Positions 10,229-31,236 of a stretch of 64,000 nucleotides of DNA are shown one piece after another; the first letter of the stretch is position 1, and every line of letters starts with the position of its first letter. The translations under genes were made by a program, and so were the position numbers. The notes beneath the pieces are model-generated. The model made no database searches. It saw nothing but the letters and a program-made list of their open reading frames with translations, and had not been told where the DNA came from. Where the stretch lies: the IMG/VR virus record IMGVR_UViG_3300043403_000051, positions 1-64,000 of that record; one strand, written 5' to 3'. The stretch is from a virus.

Positions 10229-10254
10229 AAGGTATTATTTAAATGTTATTTTTG

Positions 10255-10328
10255 TGAACGGGATTGGATTCAAACCAATGACCTACTGCTTAGAAGGCAG
10301 TTGCTCTATTCAACTGAGCTACCCATCC
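10255..10328 (-). tRNA. tRNA-Arg(TCT)
   Basis: GGATGGG acceptor, TAGCTCAG D-arm, ACTGC-CTTCTAA-GCAGT, ATTGG-TTTGAAT-CCAAT. Confidence 0.85.
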
Positions 10329-16487: not shown

Positions 16488-16520
16488 CTTATTGTTTCCT
16501 CTTATAAAATAAATTAGAAA

Positions 16521-16793
16521 ATGGAGAAATTGAAAAAGATTGATTGTCCAATGCTTGAACTTGAGCAATATAAAAAACTTACAATAGGTGAAATTGAGGA
16601 TGCTATGAAAGAATATCGTAAAGATAATCCTAACACATTCAGGCATCCTATTCATTATAGTGGCCCAGGATATTCATATTGGGATTTTGGTGGCCTTATA
16701 ACAGGAGATGGGGGGAAGATACTTTATGATGAAGCTATGAAAAAGGCGGCTGAAGTTTATTTGGAGAAATTTGGGGAAGCTTATAATAAATAA
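16521..16793 (+). CDS. hypothetical protein
   Basis: ORF after a promoter. Confidence 0.6.
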   Translation: MEKLKKIDCPMLELEQYKKLTIGEIEDAMKEYRKDNPNTFRHPIHYSGPGYSYWDFGGLITGDGGKILYDEAMKKAAEVYLEKFGEAYNK

Positions 16794-16794
16794 A

Positions 16795-16826
16795 TTTGGT
16801 AGTTTCAAAAATTTAACGTATCTTTG
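16795..16826 (+). promoter_or_regulatory. Bacteroidota sigma-type promoter
   Basis: TTTGGTAG...TATCTTTG with 20-nt spacing; ATG 5 nt downstream. Confidence 0.75.
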
Positions 16827-16831
16827 TATTC

Positions 16832-17053
16832 ATGAAGGATGTTATAGAGAATACTTTTTTAGATTTACCTCTTATGAGGAGAGCTATTGTTTATGGTATT
16901 GCTTTGTATGATGAAAAATATGAGTTATTGAAGGTTATTGACCCCCTTATAAAAGAAGATAGGGATGAATTTTTAAAAGCGGCAGAACTCATTAAAGATA
17001 TATGTACACTGTCAGGTGGTGAAATTGGTATACGCGCTGCCTCGTCTCGGTAG
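16832..17053 (+). CDS. hypothetical protein, probably leaderless; 3' end overlaps a tRNA-like RNA
   Basis: ORF starts at the predicted transcription start. Confidence 0.5.
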   Translation: MKDVIENTFLDLPLMRRAIVYGIALYDEKYELLKVIDPLIKEDRDEFLKAAELIKDICTLSGGEIGIRAASSR

Positions 17054-17134
17054 TGCAATTCTTGATAAGGACAGTCATTTAAACATATTGGACGCTTATA
17101 GAGTTGCTTGTAGGTTCGAATCCTACCCTGACAG
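17010..17134 (+). ncRNA. tRNA-like RNA with giant variable arm
   Basis: TGTCAGG/CCTGACA acceptor, Leu-type D-arm TGGTGAAATTGGTATACGC, CTGCC-TCGTCTC-GGTAG, ~55-nt hairpin GCAATTCT...AGAGTTGC, GTAGG-TTCGAAT-CCTAC. Confidence 0.7.
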
Positions 17135-17150
17135 CTTAAAATTATTAATT

Positions 17151-17486
17151 ATGAATGTGGAATTTATAGTACGATTTGATAAAGAATTAACCGCAGAGCA
17201 AAAGAGAGAACGTAAAGAGGCTCAACAATTACATAAAATGGTTAATCCTAATGATTATGAAGGCCCTGTATATGAAAAGGAGTATGAGTACTTGCCTATT
17301 ACATTACCTATTACTGATAAGGTGATTTTTAATGTGTATGATAAAAACCATACAACCGTATATATACCTAAAATAGCAACATATATGCTTAAAATAAAGT
17401 ATGATGATTTTAAACAAGTCTTTGGTATTGCAACAGGAAATCTATTAATTCCAAAAGCTGAAAGCTTAATTCCCCCGACCCCATAA
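17151..17486 (+). CDS. hypothetical protein
   Basis: Likely start MNVEFIVR just after the tRNA-like RNA. Confidence 0.6.
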   Translation: MNVEFIVRFDKELTAEQKRERKEAQQLHKMVNPNDYEGPVYEKEYEYLPITLPITDKVIFNVYDKNHTTVYIPKIATYMLKIKYDDFKQVFGIATGNLLIPKAESLIPPTP

Positions 17487-17514
17487 TTAAATTTGATTAA
17501 TTTCTAAAAATAAA

Positions 17515-17546
17515 TTTGGTAGTTTCAAAAAAGTTACTTACCTTTG
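17515..17546 (+). promoter_or_regulatory. promoter of tRNA operon 1
   Basis: TTTGGTAG...TACCTTTG with 20-nt spacing. Confidence 0.8.
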
Positions 17547-17564
17547 TATTTCAATAAAAGAAAA

Positions 17565-17669
17565 ATGAATTCAAGAACTGTCATAGATAATATTAGAAAC
17601 GCGGAGGGCTGTAAAAAGGCTCTTGTGGGTAATGTATGTTTTTATGACGGAGGTTGCGGATGTAACTAA
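17565..17669 (+). CDS. attenuator leader peptide 1, MNSRTVIDNIRNAEGCKKALVGNVCFYDGGCGCN
   Basis: Short ORF between promoter and terminator; codons 6-19 match the downstream tRNA set. Confidence 0.8.
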   Translation: MNSRTVIDNIRNAEGCKKALVGNVCFYDGGCGCN

Positions 17670-17692
17670 AGACAGATAAAATAAAATATATG

Positions 17693-17732
17693 AACCCCTC
17701 AAGAGCCAAAGCTTCTGAGGGGTTTCTTTTTT
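17693..17732 (+). terminator. attenuator terminator 1
   Basis: AACCCCTCA...TGAGGGGTT followed by TCTTTTTT, directly before tRNA-Lys. Confidence 0.85.
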
Positions 17733-17806
17733 CCCCTTATAGCTCAATTGGTTAGAGTACCAGACTTTTAATCTGGGTGTTCAGAGTTCGAGTCTCTGTG
17801 GGGGGA
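17733..17806 (+). tRNA. tRNA-Lys(TTT)
   Basis: CCAGA-CTTTTAA-TCTGG, TTCGAGT T-loop. Confidence 0.9.
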
Positions 17807-17819
17807 CATAAAATAATAA

Positions 17820-17891
17820 GGGCGTGTGGCCGAGTGATTCAGGTAGTGGTCTGCAACACCATTGACACAGGTTTGAATCCTGTCATGCCCT
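17820..17891 (+). tRNA. tRNA-Cys(GCA)
   Basis: GTGGT-CTGCAAC-ACCAT, U73. Confidence 0.85.
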
Positions 17892-17901
17892 CTTAATATA
17901 T

Positions 17902-17976
17902 GCATCGGTAGCTCAGTTGGTTTAGAGCAGGGTCTTTACACGGCTCTGGTCGGGGGTTCGAATCCCTCTCGATGTA
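17902..17976 (+). tRNA. tRNA-Val(TAC)
   Basis: GGGTC-TTTACAC-GGCTC. Confidence 0.85.
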
Positions 17977-17982
17977 CATTCT

Positions 17983-18053
17983 CCACCTGTCGTTCAATGG
18001 AAGGACAACATGCTTCTAACTTGTTTACAGAGGTTCGACTCCTCTCAGGTGGT
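17983..18053 (+). tRNA. tRNA-Arg(TCT)
   Basis: ACATG-CTTCTAA-CTTGT, CCACCTG/CAGGTGG acceptor. Confidence 0.85.
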
Positions 18054-18072
18054 CTAACAAAATTTTAACAAT

Positions 18073-18405
18073 ATGATTAAGTTTTTATCAGCTATATTTC
18101 TTATCTTTGTAGTTGCTACAATGTCAAAGACAGGAACAGCAAGTTTTTATCACTCTAAGTTCGAAGGTAGGAAAACAGCAAACGGTGAAGTATTTAGAAA
18201 TAATGGGTATACGGCAGCATCAAATCAGTTCAAGCTTGGTGATAGTGTAAGAGTTACTAACCTTGAAAATATGAGGAAAGTAAATGTGAAGATTAATGAT
18301 AGAATGGCTGATGGTATAAGATTGATTGATTTAACACAAAAAGTAGCAAGAGATTTAGGTTACTATAAAAAAGGTATAACAAAAGTAAAAGTAGAAAAAA
18401 TATAA
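18073..18405 (+). CDS. RlpA-like double-psi beta-barrel protein (lytic transglycosylase family)
   Basis: Signal-like N-terminus, GTASFY, TANGE, TAA, VRVTN, VKINDR, IDL. Confidence 0.85.
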   Translation: MIKFLSAIFLIFVVATMSKTGTASFYHSKFEGRKTANGEVFRNNGYTAASNQFKLGDSVRVTNLENMRKVNVKINDRMADGIRLIDLTQKVARDLGYYKKGITKVKVEKI

Positions 18406-18411
18406 ATAAAT

Positions 18412-18483
18412 TCCCCTTTAGCTCAACGGAAGAGCAACACCCTGTTAAGGTGAAGGTTGAGATATCGTAATTCTCAGGGGGAG
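18412..18483 (+). tRNA. tRNA-Asn(GTT)
   Basis: CACC-CTGTTAA-GGTG, G73. Confidence 0.85.
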
Positions 18484-18490
18484 CATATAT

Positions 18491-18563
18491 TGTGGGGTGC
18501 AAGTAATGGTAACTGGTCGGTCTCATAAGCCGTACGATAATGGTTCGACTCCATTCTCCGCAA
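18491..18563 (+). tRNA. tRNA-Met(CAT) (Met or Ile2 identity not resolved)
   Basis: CGGT-CTCATAA-GCCG, TTCGACT T-loop. Confidence 0.8.
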
Positions 18564-18627
18564 CAGAAACGCTTTATATCTCGGCTCGTATATAAAGGGA
18601 AGATTCTTGAAATAAACGGGCCCTCAC

Positions 18628-18701
18628 GCAGTATACGCATAATTGGTGGTGCATCTTCCTTCCACGTAGAAATAGAGTCGGTTCGATTCCGACATACTGC
18701 T
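18628..18701 (+). tRNA. tRNA-Gly(TCC)
   Basis: GCAGTAT/ATACTGC acceptor, CTTCCAC loop, U73. Confidence 0.8.
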
Positions 18702-18745
18702 CAGGGGGTTTTATCAGTTTCCCGTGACAAAAAAACTGGTGTTAT

Positions 18746-18821
18746 ATCCCTGTTGACAAAATTGGAGTAAGTCCCTTCCCTTTCAAGGAAGTTATTGCGA
18801 GTTCGAGCCTCGTCGGGGATA
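18746..18821 (+). tRNA. tRNA-Glu(TTC)
   Basis: CTTCC-CTTTCAA-GGAAG. Confidence 0.85.
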
Positions 18822-18826
18822 CAGTA

Positions 18827-18917
18827 AAAGTAGTTGGCGTAATTGGGAATGAATACCAACAATAGTTAACGCCCTATATCAGTATAGGAGATGCGGGTGG
18901 AAGTCCTGTACTACTTT
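18827..18917 (+). ncRNA. degenerate tRNA-like element
   Basis: AAAGTAGT/ACTACTTT acceptor, GCGT..ACGC D-stem with enlarged loop, CCTATA-TCAG-TATAGG, GCGGG-TGGAAGT-CCTGT. Confidence 0.5.
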
Positions 18918-18924
18918 AACATAC

Positions 18925-18998
18925 GGAATTGCAGCATATTTGGCGTATGCAACTCACTGTCTATGAGTTGATTGCGGGTTCGAGTCCCGTCTTTTCCG
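18925..18998 (+). tRNA. tRNA-Asp(GTC)
   Basis: ACTCA-CTGTCTA-TGAGT, G73; two acceptor-stem mismatches. Confidence 0.8.
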
Positions 18999-19068
18999 CA
19001 GTAGTTTGGGAAACGAAGGCATGTAAAACTGAAAAGTGTCTACTCAAACAGCCCTTAACGGGGCATCT

Positions 19069-19141
19069 GCTTTCTTAGCTCAACGGTGAGAGCAGGACGC
19101 TTATATCGTCAAGGTTACAGGTTCGAATCCTGTAGGAAGTA
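19069..19141 (+). tRNA. tRNA-Ile(TAT)
   Basis: GACG-CTTATAT-CGTC. Confidence 0.85.
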
Positions 19142-19146
19142 CATAT

Positions 19147-19220
19147 TGAGATGTAGCTCAATTGGTGAGAGCATATGACTGATACTCATAAGGTTGAAGG
19201 TTCGACCCCTTTCATCTCAA
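19147..19220 (+). tRNA. tRNA-Ile(GAT)
   Basis: TATGA-CTGATAC-TCATA. Confidence 0.85.
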
Positions 19221-19225
19221 CACAC

Positions 19226-19299
19226 GGGGCAATAGTTTAAGCGGCTTAAAACAATTGATTTGCAATCAGTAGTTCCGATTTCGAGTATCGGTGGCTCCA
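19226..19299 (+). tRNA. tRNA-Ala(TGC)
   Basis: ATTGA-TTTGCAA-TCAGT, G3:U70 pair. Confidence 0.85.
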
Positions 19300-19313
19300 C
19301 ACAAAGAACAACA

Positions 19314-19793
19314 ATGGACAAATATTTTAAAACTGAGACTGGTAAAATAGTTGATATAATAGAATACACGGCCCAACAAATAAAAGACAATCCCTCTGTT
19401 AAGATATACATAGGTGCTGATAGCCAAGTCTACGGCCCTAAGATTAAGTTTATCTTAGCTATTGTATATAGGGTTGGTAATAGGGGTGGGCACTGTATTC
19501 ATAAGCTTATAAAGACTGAAAGACCACCCAAAGGGATTCCTGATGAAATTCAGGTTAATAACAGGCTTACAGAGGAAGTTTACTTAACTATGGAGCTTGC
19601 CCAATATTTTATTGATAATAGTTCTTTTAAACTGGAGGCAGTTGAATTTGACTTTAATCAAGAGGAAAGTTACCTAAGTAACAAGCTAATAAACTTATCA
19701 ACAGGTTGGGCTAAAGGACTTGGTTTTAAAGCACGTACTAAGCCTGATGAACTGATAGCTTGCAAGTATGCAGACCATCTCGTAAGATTTTAA
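19314..19793 (+). CDS. RNase H-like YkuK (DUF458) family protein
   Basis: IYIGADSQ, GGH, RL.EEV, KPD..IA...AD; start MDKYFK. Confidence 0.75.
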   Translation: MDKYFKTETGKIVDIIEYTAQQIKDNPSVKIYIGADSQVYGPKIKFILAIVYRVGNRGGHCIHKLIKTERPPKGIPDEIQVNNRLTEEVYLTMELAQYFIDNSSFKLEAVEFDFNQEESYLSNKLINLSTGWAKGLGFKARTKPDELIACKYADHLVRF

Positions 19794-19795
19794 TT

Positions 19796-20392
19796 ATGAT
19801 TGTAATATATAAAATAGAAAATCCAAAAGGTAAAGTTTATATTGGTCAAACCAAAAGACTTATTCAAAGAAAGTCTGCTTACAAAAATTTAAGATGTAAG
19901 AAACAAAGAAAACTTTATAGTTCTTTAAATAAATATGGTTGGGAAAATCATACACTTTGTGTTTTACATGAGTTACCTGATGATATAGAGCAAAGAGTAG
20001 TAGATGATTATGAAATTTTTTACTATGAACAATTTATTGCTTGTGGATTTGAAATGCTAAACCTAAAAACATGCGGAAACGGCGGAGGATTACACTCGGA
20101 GGAAACAAAGAGATTGATAGGAAAACAAAGTAAGGAAAGATTTAAAGCTAAATCTGGAATGAAAATAGCTCAGGTAAATCTTAATTTGGAAATTATTAAT
20201 TTTTGGGAGAACGGTTATACACTACAACAAGAAAGAAAGTATTACAATATATCAAGAAAATGCAGAGAATTTCCAAGTATAGCTTATGGATATTTTTGGT
20301 TATACGAAAAAGATTTACATAAATTAACGCAAATAGACAAGCTTAAAATAAAAAAAGACGGGAATGGTGTTTATAGTTATTTCAAAATGTAA
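19796..20392 (+). CDS. GIY-YIG homing endonuclease with NUMOD-type C-terminus
   Basis: VIYKIEN..KVYIGQT, LN...GG, HSEETKRLIG, AYGYFW. Confidence 0.85.
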   Translation: MIVIYKIENPKGKVYIGQTKRLIQRKSAYKNLRCKKQRKLYSSLNKYGWENHTLCVLHELPDDIEQRVVDDYEIFYYEQFIACGFEMLNLKTCGNGGGLHSEETKRLIGKQSKERFKAKSGMKIAQVNLNLEIINFWENGYTLQQERKYYNISRKCREFPSIAYGYFWLYEKDLHKLTQIDKLKIKKDGNGVYSYFKM

Positions 20393-20431
20393 TAATCTCT
20401 GTAGAGTTTAGTAATTCATTAACATTATTTA

Positions 20432-20463
20432 TTTGGTAGATTAAAAAAAGATTTATACCTTTG
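20432..20463 (+). promoter_or_regulatory. promoter of tRNA operon 2
   Basis: TTTGGTAG...TACCTTTG with 20-nt spacing. Confidence 0.8.
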
Positions 20464-20469
20464 TATCCC

Positions 20470-20547
20470 ATGAAGAATTTCAACACATATTATAGTCTCT
20501 CATTGTTATCCAGCCTAACGGGTCGGGAGCTAAAGGTATGGGTATAA
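20470..20547 (+). CDS. attenuator leader peptide 2, MKNFNTYYSLSLLSSLTGRELKVWV
   Basis: YYSLSLLSSL run upstream of Leu/Leu/Ser/Ser/Tyr tRNAs. Confidence 0.85.
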   Translation: MKNFNTYYSLSLLSSLTGRELKVWV

Positions 20548-20576
20548 TAAAGATAAACTCTTAAATCAAAACATAT

Positions 20577-20604
20577 AAAAAAGCTCCCTATTGGGGGCTT
20601 TTTT
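20577..20604 (+). terminator. attenuator terminator 2
   Basis: AAGCTCCC-TATT-GGGGGCTT followed by TTTT. Confidence 0.85.
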
Positions 20605-20611
20605 AGTTTAT

Positions 20612-20684
20612 GGCTCTATGACGTAATTGGAAACCGTCTTGGCTTTAGAACCCAAGTTTCCGAGTTCGAGTCTCGGTAGAGCTA
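20612..20684 (+). tRNA. tRNA-Leu(TAG), short variable loop
   Basis: TTGG..TTTAGAA..CCAA, A73. Confidence 0.8.
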
Positions 20685-20687
20685 CAT

Positions 20688-20760
20688 GCCTTTGTGATGA
20701 AACGGAATACATGTCAGACTTAAAATCTGAATTTTACGGGTTCGACTCCCGTCAGAGGTA
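20688..20760 (+). tRNA. tRNA-Leu(TAA), short variable loop
   Basis: TCAGA-CTTAAAA-TCTGA, A73. Confidence 0.85.
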
Positions 20761-20765
20761 CATTT

Positions 20766-20850
20766 GGAAGCACGTAAAGTTGGCGTACTTATCCGTCTTG
20801 AAAACGGTGAAGAGGTAACACTTGTGCAGGTTCGACCCCTGCTGTTTCCG
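20766..20850 (+). tRNA. tRNA-Ser(TGA)
   Basis: CCGT-CTTGAAA-ACGG, long variable arm, G73. Confidence 0.85.
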
Positions 20851-20853
20851 CAT

Positions 20854-20937
20854 AGAGAGGTGACTGAATGGTAAGGTACTGGTTTGCTAAACCAGGGTCA
20901 GATAAAACTGGAGTGGGTTCGATACCCATCCTCTCTG
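20854..20937 (+). tRNA. tRNA-Ser(GCT)
   Basis: CTGGT-TTGCTAA-ACCAG, long variable arm. Confidence 0.85.
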
Positions 20938-20998
20938 CTAAAGGGTTCCTGTATCAGGCAAAATATAACCCCCGTTGTGGTATAGGAATCGTTTATTT

Positions 20999-21083
20999 GA
21001 GATAGCTGTCGTGATGGAGGAACGGCACTGGTCTGTAAAACCAGCACTATGAAACACAGTAGGTTCGAATCCCACCTATCTCA
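20999..21083 (+). tRNA. tRNA-Tyr(GTA)
   Basis: CTGGT-CTGTAAA-ACCAG, long variable region. Confidence 0.85.
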
Positions 21084-21109
21084 CATTAACAATTAATTTT
21101 AATTATTTA

Positions 21110-21141
21110 TTTGGTAGTTAGATAAAAAGATACTACCTTTG
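21110..21141 (+). promoter_or_regulatory. promoter of tRNA operon 3
   Basis: TTTGGTAG...TACCTTTG with 20-nt spacing. Confidence 0.8.
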
Positions 21142-21145
21142 CTTT

Positions 21146-21226
21146 ATGAATGTAACACGTACACATACGCAACAGTTTTGGTTCCCTACAAGGGCTGGGC
21201 TTGGTATGTGTGATAATAGAGGATAA
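21146..21226 (+). CDS. attenuator leader peptide 3, MNVTRTHTQQFWFPTRAGLGMCDNRG
   Basis: TRTHTQQFWFPTR run upstream of Pro/Thr/Phe/Gln/His/Arg/Trp tRNAs. Confidence 0.85.
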   Translation: MNVTRTHTQQFWFPTRAGLGMCDNRG

Positions 21227-21250
21227 ATTCCCCCAAACACTCACTCATTG

Positions 21251-21288
21251 AAAAGCCCAGGACATAAAATCCTGGGTTTTTTATTTTT
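21251..21288 (+). terminator. attenuator terminator 3
   Basis: AAAAGCCCAGGA-CATAAAA-TCCTGGGTTTT followed by TTATTTTT. Confidence 0.85.
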
Positions 21289-21291
21289 AAT

Positions 21292-21365
21292 CGGGATGTG
21301 GACTAATGGCAAGTCACTTACTTTGGGAGTAAGGCATCATGGAGGTTCGAGTCCTCTCATCCCGA
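21292..21365 (+). tRNA. tRNA-Pro(TGG)
   Basis: CTTAC-TTTGGGA-GTAAG. Confidence 0.9.
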
Positions 21366-21370
21366 CATTT

Positions 21371-21442
21371 GCCTCGTAAGCATATATGGTGATGCAGCGC
21401 ACTTGTAATGCGCAGAATAGGTTTCGAGTACCTAACTTGGCT
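21371..21442 (+). tRNA. tRNA-Thr(TGT)
   Basis: GCGCA-CTTGTAA-TGCGC. Confidence 0.85.
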
Positions 21443-21449
21443 CAGTAAT

Positions 21450-21521
21450 GGAGATATAGCTCAGTTGGAAGAGCAACGGATTGAAGCCCCGTGAGCACCA
21501 GTTCGACTCTGGTTATCTCCA
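21450..21521 (+). tRNA. tRNA-Phe(GAA)
   Basis: ACGG..TTGAAGC..CCGT, GGAGATA/TATCTCC acceptor. Confidence 0.85.
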
Positions 21522-21528
21522 CATATAT

Positions 21529-21599
21529 TCCCATTTGGCGTAACGGAAGCGTAGGACTCTTTGAAAGTCTTGGAAATTGTTCGATTCAATTAATGGGAG
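21529..21599 (+). tRNA. tRNA-Gln(TTG)
   Basis: GGACT-CTTTGAA-AGTCT. Confidence 0.85.
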
Positions 21600-21604
21600 C
21601 ACAC

Positions 21605-21676
21605 GGGTTTATTGATGTAATGGAAGCATGGCAGTTTGTGAAGCTGCTCGTATGGGTTCGAACCCCATATCTACCC
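21605..21676 (+). tRNA. tRNA-His(GTG)
   Basis: GCAGT-TTGTGAA-GCTGC, G-1:C73. Confidence 0.85.
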
Positions 21677-21681
21677 CTTTT

Positions 21682-21753
21682 ATCCTCTTAGCATAATGGA
21701 AGTGCAGCAAGCTACGAACTTGCGTTGTGTGAGTTCGAGTCTCATGGAGGATT
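21682..21753 (+). tRNA. tRNA-Arg(ACG)
   Basis: GCAAG-CTACGAA-CTTGC. Confidence 0.85.
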
Positions 21754-21765
21754 CTTTTTATAACT

Positions 21766-21835
21766 GCGTATGCCTAAAGGAGTAGTAAGCGGTCTCCAAA
21801 ACCGTGATTTATCAGTTCGAGTCTGGTCATGCGTG
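21766..21835 (+). tRNA. tRNA-Trp(CCA)
   Basis: GCGGT-CTCCAAA-ACCGT; weak D-arm. Confidence 0.8.
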
Positions 21836-21846
21836 CTTAAATAGTA

Positions 21847-21896
21847 TACCCAAGTTAATTATTTGTTAAAAGTAATTGATTTGGGTTATTTTTTTT
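21847..21896 (+). terminator. terminator closing the tRNA region
   Basis: ACCCAAGTTAATTA/TAATTGATTTGGGT stem followed by a T-tract. Confidence 0.7.
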
Positions 21897-21925
21897 GGTA
21901 GTGTCATAAATTCTTGTTATTTTTG
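21894..21925 (+). promoter_or_regulatory. promoter of the packaging/virion block
   Basis: TTTGGTAG...TATTTTTG with 20-nt spacing. Confidence 0.7.
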
Positions 21926-21940
21926 TATAAATTAATTACT

Positions 21941-22294
21941 GTGAGCAACCAAATACCTTTTATAAAGATTTCAAAGAACACAGACTCTAAAATAGAGATG
22001 GTTAAAAAGATTGTTTCTATCTATTGTGTGTTGTCTGATATTAAACTTTCTGAAACTGATATTATAGTTGTTTCATATTTCATTCTATATGGAATCAATG
22101 AAAAAACTAAAAAATTAATTATTGATAGCAAACTCCTTAATAGTGATAGTATCAAAAATACAATGTCAAAATTAAGAAAAGCAGGTATAATTAAAAAATC
22201 AGAATTCAGGAGAAAAGAAGATTATCTAAATGAAAACTTAAACATACCAATTAATAAAGTTGTTGGATTAATGATTAAAATAGATAACTCCTAA
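21941..22294 (+). CDS. putative winged-helix DNA-binding protein
   Basis: SIKNTMSKLRKAGIIKK; start uncertain (GTG 21941). Confidence 0.5.
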   Translation: MSNQIPFIKISKNTDSKIEMVKKIVSIYCVLSDIKLSETDIIVVSYFILYGINEKTKKLIIDSKLLNSDSIKNTMSKLRKAGIIKKSEFRRKEDYLNENLNIPINKVVGLMIKIDNS

Positions 22295-29559: not shown

Positions 29560-31236
29560 ATGACAGATTTCAAAGTACCAAGTTTGAATCAACTGAATAA
29601 CGGAGTAGTTATTGGTCAATCTCGTTTTGACCCCCGTAAGTTTACAGATTTAAACTTCCTTTACACAAACTATTCCAAAGATGCCTTTACAGTATATAAG
29701 GGTCTTCTTGCATTGTGGAATCAAAGGAGCATAATTAATACTCCATTGATTAATAGCACATTGCTAAAAAACAACGTAATGTATGTTCCTAATCAGGAAG
29801 GTAAGTTCCGTTTTGATGTTCCTTATGAATTGGGACTTCCTTATATTGTAGAAAATCTTGAGGTTGATACAGACAAGCCTGGTCTTGATGGTCAAAAATT
29901 CAAAATTAAACTTAATGAAGATTGTTATACTAACACTGACCGTTTGATTGCAGACTATCGTGATGGTATTGAACTTTATATTACGGAAGATGAAATCATT
30001 CAAGAAGCTGATGGATTTGTATATACAGTAGAAATTGTAAGTAACAATCGTAGAGGTACTTTCTATCCTAAAGAATGGTTAGAGCCTGGTACACAATACA
30101 TGAAACTTTCTAATATCAATGGTGAATATGATACACAAAAATCATCTATTTCATCAGAAGGTCTTCGTACTGGTATTATGAATCTTGAAATGGAACTTGG
30201 TGGTGGTCACCGTTCCGTAACTCACTGGATTACTGGTTATGCTGATATGGCTCGTGTTGATGAAAACAAACACCCTAACTTAGCGTTTATTAACCAACGT
30301 CTTGAGAGCATGGGTTCAACAATGCTTTACTACAATACTAATCCTAAAACAGGAGCACCTCTTGCTAAAACTACTACATGGCAACCAACTGTGGAAGTAT
30401 TGCTTCGTGCAGAGATGGAGATGATGACTGAAAAGGACTTAATGTGGTCTAAAGGTGGTTTTATTACAGGTTCTGGTAGAAGACAAACTCGTGTAGGCCC
30501 TGGTCTTTATGAGCAACTTCGTAATGGTAACCGTTATCAATATAATAAGATTAGTCTTACCCTTATTGAGCGTGCTGTAGCCAATCTATTCTCTAAGTCA
30601 GGTATTCCTCTTGACCAACGTCGTACAAAGATTGTAACTGGTACAGGTGGTCTTATTCAAGTTTCGAAAGAAATTGAAGAAAAATACAAACAAGTAGTTC
30701 CATTTATGACTCAGGTTTCTGATGTTCCTGGTGGAGTACTTTATGGTGACCAAATGAATCTTGGTTATAAGTATCGTTTTACAAAATTCTTCTCTCCAAT
30801 TGCGGGTGAAATCGAATTCGAAATCAACCCTGCTCTTGATAACCTTAGTTCTAATCGTGTACAAGATAACTTCAACGGAGAATATCCTATTGAGTCTTTC
30901 ACATATATGATTCTTGACGTTACTGATAGTCGTTCTACAAATGCTGCGGCAAGAGTAAATACAACTAAGTATCGTGTACAAGACGGATTTAATTCAGACG
31001 CTAATATCGTTTTAGTTAAACCTGAAAACTACGGTGATTTATATTGGGGTTATATTGCAGGTACTCACCACCCACTTGGGCCTTCTTACATGAAGGGAAT
31101 GATGTCTGCTAACCAGTATGATGGTTATCAAATTTGGATGAAAGCGTTTGCAAATCTTTGGGTTAAAGACGTAACACGTACACTACTTATTGAGAAAGCT
31201 CGTCCGTTCTATAATGGATTATTTGCTCAACAATAA
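29560..31236 (+). CDS. major capsid protein (crAss-like)
   Basis: 558 aa, high-expression codon bias, GPGLYEQL, TGTGG, NPALD, ES.TY motifs; gene order. Confidence 0.85.
   Translation: MTDFKVPSLNQLNNGVVIGQSRFDPRKFTDLNFLYTNYSKDAFTVYKGLLALWNQRSIINTPLINSTLLKNNVMYVPNQEGKFRFDVPYELGLPYIVENLEVDTDKPGLDGQKFKIKLNEDCYTNTDRLIADYRDGIELYITEDEIIQEADGFVYTVEIVSNNRRGTFYPKEWLEPGTQYMKLSNINGEYDTQKSSISSEGLRTGIMNLEMELGGGHRSVTHWITGYADMARVDENKHPNLAFINQRLESMGSTMLYYNTNPKTGAPLAKTTTWQPTVEVLLRAEMEMMTEKDLMWSKGGFITGSGRRQTRVGPGLYEQLRNGNRYQYNKISLTLIERAVANLFSKSGIPLDQRRTKIVTGTGGLIQVSKEIEEKYKQVVPFMTQVSDVPGGVLYGDQMNLGYKYRFTKFFSPIAGEIEFEINPALDNLSSNRVQDNFNGEYPIESFTYMILDVTDSRSTNAAARVNTTKYRVQDGFNSDANIVLVKPENYGDLYWGYIAGTHHPLGPSYMKGMMSANQYDGYQIWMKAFANLWVKDVTRTLLIEKARPFYNGLFAQQ

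Follow-up and report, generated by a model that had tools for sequence, protein, structure and literature searches.

The window analysed here is a stretch of 64,000 nucleotides (nt), the first 64 kb of the 83,054-bp single-contig phage genome IMGVR_UViG_3300043403_000051, and our subject is the set of three short leader genes that stand before its transfer RNA (tRNA) operons. A crAss-type major capsid protein is encoded at 29560-31233 (Pfam PF23898, Crass_capsid, E-value 5e-33), and the phage is, judged by its sequence, Crassvirales-like. Its plus strand carries 24 tRNA genes between 17515 and 21836, arranged in three blocks, each opening with a promoter, a short open reading frame (ORF) and an intrinsic terminator. 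Our findings suggest that each of these units is a ribosome-mediated transcription attenuator placed before a phage tRNA operon and exerting feedback on decoding capacity, a reading to which we assign a probability of roughly two in three.

The first block, the Lys-led or K operon (17733-19300), encodes tRNAs for Lys, Cys, Val, Arg(UCU), Asn, Met, Gly, Glu, Asp, Ile(UAU), Ile(GAU) and Ala, and encloses a gene for a DPBB-domain protein (18073-18405). The Leu-led or L operon (20612-21084) encodes Leu(UAG), Leu(UAA), Ser(UGA), Ser(GCU) and Tyr, and the Pro-led or P operon (21292-21836) encodes Pro, Thr, Phe, Gln, His, Arg(ACG) and Trp. ARAGORN identifies 23 of the 24 tRNAs at its default threshold and tRNA-Ser(UGA), at 20766-20851 in the L operon, solely at a relaxed threshold; with that call included, the three operons jointly cover all 20 amino acids.

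Each unit begins with a promoter of the Bacteroidota type, TTTG-N20-TACCTTTG, located at 17515-17546 (K), 20432-20463 (L) and 21110-21141 (P) on the plus strand, with 18, 6 and 4 nt, respectively, between the -7 box and the ATG. A looser pattern, TTTG-N17-23-TAnnTTTG, matches the window 16 times against 6.8 ± 2.2 expected, a count that none of 100 shuffles reached. The leader ORFs follow on the same strand, each starting with ATG: 34 codons plus stop at 17565-17669 (K), ending in a Gly-Gly-Cys-Gly-Cys motif; 25 codons plus stop at 20470-20547 (L); and 26 codons plus stop at 21146-21226 (P). Behind them lie the terminators, each made up of a G+C-rich hairpin, whose end lies 8-14 nt ahead of the first tRNA, and a T-run after it. 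The K terminator spans 17692-17732 (hairpin 17692-17725, -20.7 kcal/mol), directly before tRNA-Lys, which starts at 17733; the L terminator spans 20583-20604 (hairpin 20583-20598) and the P terminator 21249-21290 (hairpin 21249-21283, -18.2 kcal/mol).

Within each leader lies an unbroken run of codons, hereafter the sensor run, that is restricted to amino acids whose tRNAs are encoded in the operon following that leader. In the K leader it extends over 14 codons (17580-17621, VIDNIRNAEGCKKA) and covers 10 of the operon's 11 amino acids, with AGA for Arg and both ATA and ATT for Ile; Met occurs in this leader only as the start codon. The L run has 10 codons (20488-20517, YYSLSLLSSL), two each for Tyr, Ser AGY, Ser UCN, Leu CUN and Leu UUR. 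The P run has 13 codons (21155-21193, TRTHTQQFWFPTR) and includes all seven amino acids of its operon; its first Arg codon is CGT, and its last is AGG, which tRNA-Arg(ACG) is not expected to read. An earlier note on this DNA, made from the letters alone, had described the thrice-repeated layout, the promoter pattern, the joint coverage of 20 amino acids and these runs as quoted here; every element proved to be present at its place between 17515 and 21836.

The simplest objection is that ORFs in AT-rich spacers came to resemble tRNA sets by coincidence. With amino-acid frequencies taken from the phage's 40 long ORFs, the three sets account for 0.59 (K), 0.20 (L) and 0.24 (P) of residues, and runs of the observed length or more have probabilities of 0.006, 1e-6 and 1e-7, respectively. 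The K run alone, drawn from a set that makes up 59% of residues, thus leaves coincidence some room, which the L and P values do not. Comparable matches could have been frequent among short ORFs, but each leader ranks first for its own set among the 495 ATG ORFs of 15-45 amino acids in the 83-kb genome, where the runners-up reach 12, 7 and 9 codons for the K, L and P sets. Own-set runs of 14, 10 and 13 codons compare with foreign-set runs of 1-7. Given, in addition, that the arrangement recurs in 43 leaders together with the co-variation described below, we give coincidence next to no credence.

These 43 leaders, on 18 phage contigs, comprise 14 K, 16 L and 13 P leaders. Megablast and blastn searches of a phage collection returned one true relative, Leptolyngbya phage Lbo-JY46 (PP438436.1, L001 in our catalogue), which is the sole relative in GenBank and carries all three units; the remaining matches covered only promoters, in crAss-like phages. 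Single-protein and alignment searches found no relatives among viral contigs. A YkuK-like RNase H-fold gene within the array (Pfam PF04308), used as bait, yielded 16 metagenome loci. A scan with the leader DNA pattern gave 29 loci, of which 24 had no nearby tRNA and were discarded as chance, leaving five viral contigs; three long viral records were followed further along their length. L035 repeats L011, and L037 and L041 are contained in L050 and L049; L010 and L035 were excluded for having the same leaders as L011, and L008, L012 and L017 as sequence without an operon start. The K leader of L007 is truncated at the contig end. The crAss-like phage cr111_1 was also set aside: it has a 13-codon ORF, a hairpin without a T-run and one array of nearly all amino acids, and because that single array holds nearly every amino acid it is unable to test matching.

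A leader is present at every Lys-, Leu- or Pro-led operon start for which sufficient upstream DNA is available. Two apparently leaderless starts were traced to an ambiguous Gln-like tRNA called Lys by ARAGORN and to a lone Leu call at relaxed threshold. The former, at 5633-5703 of L003, occupies the Gln position of the P operon; its anticodon loop is read by ARAGORN as Lys(UUU) and its acceptor stem resembles that of the window tRNA-Gln, so that it remains ambiguous. The start codon is ATG in 42 leaders and GTG in one, and all 43 frames are open to a stop before the terminator. A hairpin and T-run follow all 43 leaders, at 8-19 nt from the first tRNA in 38; in the other five the distance is 160-571 nt (503 nt for the L operon of L011) because genes have been inserted. 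The leader stop codon lies 18-56 nt before the terminator, which implies that a terminating ribosome cannot itself cover the hairpin.

Across lineages the order of residues in the runs drifts and the amino-acid set is retained, as in the K runs VIDNIRNAEGCKKA, NMIVDRIGGANEK, MIADNGDVRGIEKNG and KNIAINMICKEVGRD. Every amino acid of the base set is present in 38 of the 43 runs. Composition that is kept while order is not argues for selection on the codons read and against a conserved peptide. The position of tRNA-Cys varies: four contigs (Lbo-JY46, L004, L005 and the window) have it behind tRNA-Lys in the K operon, and the others have it in the P operon. The four K leaders of Cys-bearing operons have Cys in the run and the other ten have none; among the P leaders, those of the four matching contigs have no Cys in the run and the other nine have one to three. 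Cys codon and tRNA-Cys gene therefore agree in 27 of 27 K and P leaders, a count of sequences and not of evolutionary events. On a YkuK protein tree (151 columns), the two Cys states need at least two changes, in all 200 bootstrap trees, so that their distribution reflects either repeated moves or the exchange of whole modules. Leader codon content thus co-varies with the content of the tRNA cluster, as the earlier note had proposed to examine among related genomes.

Codon choice, counted across the pooled related sequences, follows the same division. In the K runs Arg is AGA in 13 of 14; in the fourteenth, which a single Leu codon interrupts, AGA lies next to the run. In the P runs it is CGT, CGC or CGA in 12 of 13, the thirteenth having CGC two codons upstream of its run. 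In the genome, AGA accounts for 0.61 of Arg codons and CGT, CGC and CGA together for 0.27. This split of the Arg boxes parallels the tRNAs, with tRNA-Arg(UCU) in the K operon and tRNA-Arg(ACG) in the P operon. Similarly, all 16 L runs hold all five boxes (Tyr, both Ser and both Leu), and ATA occurs together with ATY in each of the 14 K runs, in line with the two Ile tRNAs. The sensors prefer codons that are rare in phage genes (GTG, GCG, GAG, CAG, CTC, TCC, CCC and GGC) and avoid the common T-ending ones: GTG is used at 0.80 in sensors against 0.07 in genes, GCG at 0.60 against 0.05, and GAG at 0.93 against 0.27. Known attenuators likewise use rare sensor codons, such as CUA in the leu leader.

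This matching bears on an alternative that shares most of the anatomy, namely that the leaders are leader-peptide attenuators reporting general amino-acid starvation or translation stress, with the tRNA arrays forming a stress regulon like the Anabaena trn operon. A ribosome would stall alike whether a tRNA is absent or uncharged, many kinds of starvation would act on runs that combine 10-11 different amino acids, and a stress-induced tRNA array is on record in the available text of PMC8421152 and PMC10272220. A general alarm, however, has no need for a leader composition matched to its own operon, for Cys codons that move with tRNA-Cys in all 27 leaders or for divided Arg boxes, and amino-acid starvation is not cured by more tRNA. 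We consider this explanation unlikely.

A switch further requires an antiterminator. In each leader of the window a segment here called region 2 can pair with the 5' arm of the terminator: 17618-17631 in K (duplex -16.7 kcal/mol), 20524-20531 in L (-11.9 kcal/mol) and 21194-21203 in P (-15.1 kcal/mol), all on the plus strand. Such segments had been claimed for all three leaders, and all three were found, each being the best of 31 leaders tried. Since a MAFFT alignment of the 16 L leaders left the terminator arms out of register, we used a duplex permutation test, in which the best pairing of each leader (from the ATG to just before the terminator) with a terminator arm was computed and the arms were permuted within class. 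Over the 43 leaders, duplexes with the own 5' arm sum to -545.5 kcal/mol against -385.7 ± 15.7 kcal/mol for permuted arms, a value reached by none of 20,000 permutations, and the excess also holds within the K, L and P classes separately. The 3' arm served as a control and gave a null result (-310.5 against -315.9 kcal/mol, reached by 14,244 of 20,000 permutations). The antiterminator strand therefore covaries with its own terminator.

Pairing partners that change together include GGCTCTGGG with CCCAGAGCC, GGCTCCGGG with CCCGGAGCC and GCCTCAGGG with CCCTGAGGC, and the peptide encoded by region 2 shifts with the terminator (GSG, ASG, ALG, APG, GSVG). The joint change of pairing partners and coded peptide indicates a constraint on the RNA. 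In 40 of the 43 leaders the start of region 2 falls within -3 to +12 nt of the run's 3' end.

These observations also address the idea that the ORFs and terminators are real without forming a switch, the ORFs encoding functional peptides or the terminators ending short transcripts, and the tRNAs being made by constitutive leak-through or from other starts. Some peptide-level selection may indeed exist, as the Gly-Gly-Cys-Gly-Cys motif is found at eight places with synonymous changes; some predicted antiterminators are weak, and some relatives have internal promoters. Functional peptides do not account for runs whose composition is conserved and whose residue order is not, for a region 2 that covaries with the terminator while its peptide varies freely, or for its position at the run end in 40 of 43 leaders, and a pattern scan of the window found no promoter match between the terminators and the first tRNAs. 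We regard an arrangement with no switch as improbable.

The Gly-Gly-Cys-Gly-Cys codon motif deserves description in its own right. It occurs once in the window (17649-17663) against 0.00 expected, and further at 1929-1943 of L001, 4922-4936 of L009, 3777-3791 of L011, 1431-1445 of L016, 300-314 of L018, 1980-1994 of L049 and, on the reverse strand, 631-645 of L050. Always beside a leader and varying synonymously, it may close a K leader, open a P leader or stand upstream as a separate mini-ORF of 12-21 codons.

Predicted folds support a dependence on the position of the ribosome. The leader regions of the window fold better than shuffled sequences, with z-scores of -5.0, -2.6 and -2.9. When transcripts up to the terminator loop were folded with a 30-nt ribosome mask, an A site within the run left the terminator 5' arm sequestered to a greater extent than an A site 2-7 codons beyond it in 40 of the 43 leaders, the mean fraction paired being 0.77 and 0.32, respectively; 26 of the 43 passed a stricter cut. 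The evidence is divided on how closely the leaders follow the 1:2/2:3/3:4 logic of the trp, his and pheST attenuators, to which the earlier note had likened them. A leader peptide combined with an antiterminator that competes with the terminator stands. A hairpin between the sensor codons and region 2 (the 1:2 hairpin), which had been claimed as a competing structure in each leader, appears in minimum-free-energy folds of the window's three whole leaders; when the folds stop short of the terminator 3' arm, region 2 is held by this hairpin in just 18 of the 43 leaders, mostly in the Leu/Ser/Tyr class, and a general 1:2 protector is doubtful.

We therefore propose a mechanism in which the phage probably withholds each tRNA set until ribosomes slow down on the codons of that set. 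Host RNA polymerase would start at the Bacteroidota-type promoter and transcribe the ORF of 25-34 codons, and a ribosome would translate the run of 10-16 codons drawn from the boxes served by the operon's tRNAs. Region 2, directly 3' of the run, would be able to pair with the 5' arm of the terminator. A fast ribosome would move onto region 2, allowing the terminator hairpin to form and transcription to stop a few bases before the first tRNA; a ribosome slowed at any codon of the run would leave region 2 free to capture the 5' arm, and polymerase would enter the tRNA genes. As each operon would yield the very tRNAs by which its own sensor is decoded, the outcome would be negative feedback on decoding capacity, with one loop for each of the three codon sets.

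The sequences themselves show the anatomy of the units, how far it exceeds chance, how it is conserved, and how codons vary with tRNAs and antiterminators with terminators; translation of the leaders, read-through driven by stalling and the cause of lowered decoding capacity in the infected cell are steps that we infer. Decoding could be slowed by the loss of tRNAs to nucleases, by a run-down during infection, by the codon demand of late genes or by amino-acid starvation. Among these, a trigger by anticodon nucleases is speculation; the earlier proposal that the switch responds to depleted, cleaved or uncharged host tRNAs, with PrrC and PARIS as examples, is equally speculative. That only the matching tRNA set would be switched on is a prediction of the model. 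In its broadest form, which we put forward tentatively and hold to be rather doubtful, the system would be a three-channel decoding homeostat of large Bacteroidota phages that tops up whichever set is read slowly and acts as an automatic counter-measure against anticodon nucleases or run-down.

The same ingredients might be read without a ribosome. If the runs acted as RNA, their codon-like triplets binding tRNA anticodons directly in the manner of a T-box with several specifiers, the match between triplets and tRNA sets and the presence of a terminator/antiterminator pair would both be accommodated. A T-box riboswitch contains no ORF and makes direct contact with a single uncharged tRNA by means of its specifier loop and T-box sequence; it resembles the present units in coupling the state of tRNA to a choice between terminator and antiterminator before translation-related genes. 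The leaders, however, have a start codon (ATG in all cases but the one GTG) and a single frame open to its stop before the terminator, some are coupled to an upstream ORF through ATGA or TAATG, and their third bases often misfit the encoded anticodons. An Rfam scan of 16500-22200 at E-values up to 1 found no leader family at its gathering score and no T-box (RF00230); the sole leader match, Phe_leader, is at chance level (25 bits against a cut-off of 55 bits, E-value 0.66) and falls on both strands of the L terminator hairpin. Direct binding by RNA is, in our estimation, very improbable.

Several observations weigh against the attenuator reading or narrow it. Regarding the match between sensor and tRNA, the operon's own tRNAs can read 424 of the 532 run codons under strict wobble, compared with 390.6 expected from genome codon usage, so that third-base agreement is weak, and the favoured codons CTC, TCC, CCC and GGC fit the encoded U34 tRNAs poorly. 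The L operon of Lbo-JY46 has lost tRNA-Tyr and tRNA-Ser(GCU), yet its leader retains TAT TAT and AGT; likewise, the L operon of L050 lacks Leu(UAG) and its leader retains CTC. The K run of L051 is interrupted by a Leu codon, three K leaders have no internal Met codon, and the Cys switch may represent only one or two historical events, in which tRNA gene and neighbouring leader travelled together as a module.

Other difficulties concern the RNA structures. In about nine of the 31 leaders catalogued first, the duplex with the own arm does not surpass what shuffled leaders form (z above -1.5), the weak ones including the K leaders of L001 and L004 and five of nine P leaders. Masked folds of the window P leader show no difference between the two ribosome positions (0.57 and 0.63). 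Even when no ribosome is included, the arm is sequestered in the truncated folds of 25 of the 43 leaders (K 13/14, L 4/16, P 8/13), so read-through may be the default state; a 1:2 protector resembling that of trp is predicted chiefly for the L leaders. Transcription and translation starts raise further questions. In the L and P units of the window the -7 box lies only 4-6 nt before the ATG, and the corresponding mRNAs would be leaderless or nearly so, or would start past the ATG. Internal promoters in some relatives could supply downstream tRNAs independently. On other contigs an upstream ORF has a stop codon that shares bases with the leader ATG (ATGA or TAATG), an arrangement that suggests coupled translation.

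The surroundings of the leaders offer additional details. The division of tRNAs among the operons is orderly: the L operon holds exactly the tRNAs with a long variable arm (Leu, Ser, Tyr), the K operon those for codons beginning with A or G, and the P operon those for codons beginning with C or U, plus Thr. Placement of Cys (UGY) in the P operon agrees with this first-base rule. Between the K-operon tRNAs lie spacers of 63-102 nt (18565-18627, 18823-18924 and 19000-19068) with no default ARAGORN call; at relaxed threshold ARAGORN reports a 92-nt "Val(AAC)" at 18827-18918 in one of them. A lone second tRNA-Arg(UCU), on the minus strand at 10254-10328, has no codon-matched leader. Comparison with four DNA runs gave a contig from another freshwater metagenome that represents a variant of window positions 17500-18631, a piece that includes the K leader, with 44 substitutions; those listed all lie at or beyond 17736, in tRNA genes, and none of those listed falls in the promoter-leader-terminator stretch.

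A GIY-YIG-like, homing-endonuclease-like gene is present at 19796-20392 of the window (22.2 bits, slightly below the Pfam cut-off). In relatives, genes of similar character have been inserted into the arrays, starting at 4104 in L011, at 3814 and 5680 in L013 and at 2577 and 10364 in L005, and are Cys-rich HNH-like ORFs; at times such insertions separate the leader terminator from the first tRNA. L009 (9056-9127) and L015 (5439-5509) each carry, between the K and L operons, a suppressor-type tRNA with the anticodon CUA (ARAGORN "Pyl") that has its own promoter and no leader ORF, which hints at recoding of TAG in these two phages. Lbo-JY46, deposited as a phage of the cyanobacterium Leptolyngbya, has the Bacteroidota promoter motif and the leaders of the window type, and its host assignment may deserve re-examination.

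Leader-peptide attenuation is well established in enterobacteria, where examples include trpL, hisL, leuL and pheL, the multivalent thrL (Thr, Ile) and ilvL (Leu, Val, Ile), and pheM before pheST. The phage units share with the trp, his, leu, thr and ilv attenuators a promoter-proximal short ORF, a run of regulatory codons, an intrinsic terminator and an alternative pairing of its 5' arm; as in the thr and ilv leaders, a single leader combines codons for several amino acids, and rare sensor codons are a trait of both groups. They differ in that the genes putatively controlled are tRNAs (together with the DPBB-domain gene in the K operon) instead of enzymes or synthetases, so that the product itself would read the sensor. 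Each leader covers 3 to 11 amino acids, and three leaders divide all 20 among themselves. Unlike the enterobacterial systems, moreover, they are phage-borne, have promoters of the Bacteroidota type and very short or absent 5' untranslated regions, and their predicted 1:2 protector does not look general. An attenuator-like leader of the E. coli tRNA-Phe genes pheU and pheV, considered as a possible precedent, was dropped: the K-12 sequence shows the promoter immediately next to the tRNA and no leader ORF.

Phage tRNA arrays can remedy the loss of host tRNAs, as in T4 against PrrC and in T5 against PARIS and other anticodon nucleases. Like the T4 and T5 arrays, the present operons are phage-borne sets covering many or all amino acids; the accounts of T4 and T5 concern tRNA function and not transcriptional control, and we know of no sensing leader for arrays of that type. 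A literature search turned up no account of tRNA genes controlled through a leader peptide, in keeping with the earlier belief that such attenuators on phage tRNA arrays are undescribed; subscription journals and old scans were outside its scope, and an older report is possible. The nearest published case that we found, judged by the available text of its sources, is the trn operon of Anabaena sp. PCC 7120, a long tRNA array induced by translational stress and repressed by the RHH protein TrcR (PMC8421152, PMC10272220). Both are accessory tRNA arrays, that of Anabaena silent until translation is impaired; as far as the same text goes, the trn operon differs in having a protein repressor acting at the promoter, one array with one switch and no codon-matched sensor. 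In the available text of PMC8421152 there are zero occurrences of "leader", "attenuat-" and "terminator".

To summarize the significance of these units, the textbook attenuation of amino-acid and synthetase operons appears here to govern tRNA genes, with a sensor that reads its own product. If this is true, they would be the first tRNA genes under ribosome-mediated attenuation and would include the most multivalent attenuator known, with up to 11 amino acids per leader. The existence of a cultured relative, Lbo-JY46, with all three units places bench work within reach. A switch of this kind would offer a simple, portable and codon-addressable sensor of decoding capacity, as well as a handle on whether phage tRNAs respond to the loss of host tRNAs. 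It would also bear on how phages with near-complete tRNA sets avoid needless tRNA production and on why their tRNA arrays are split into fixed blocks.

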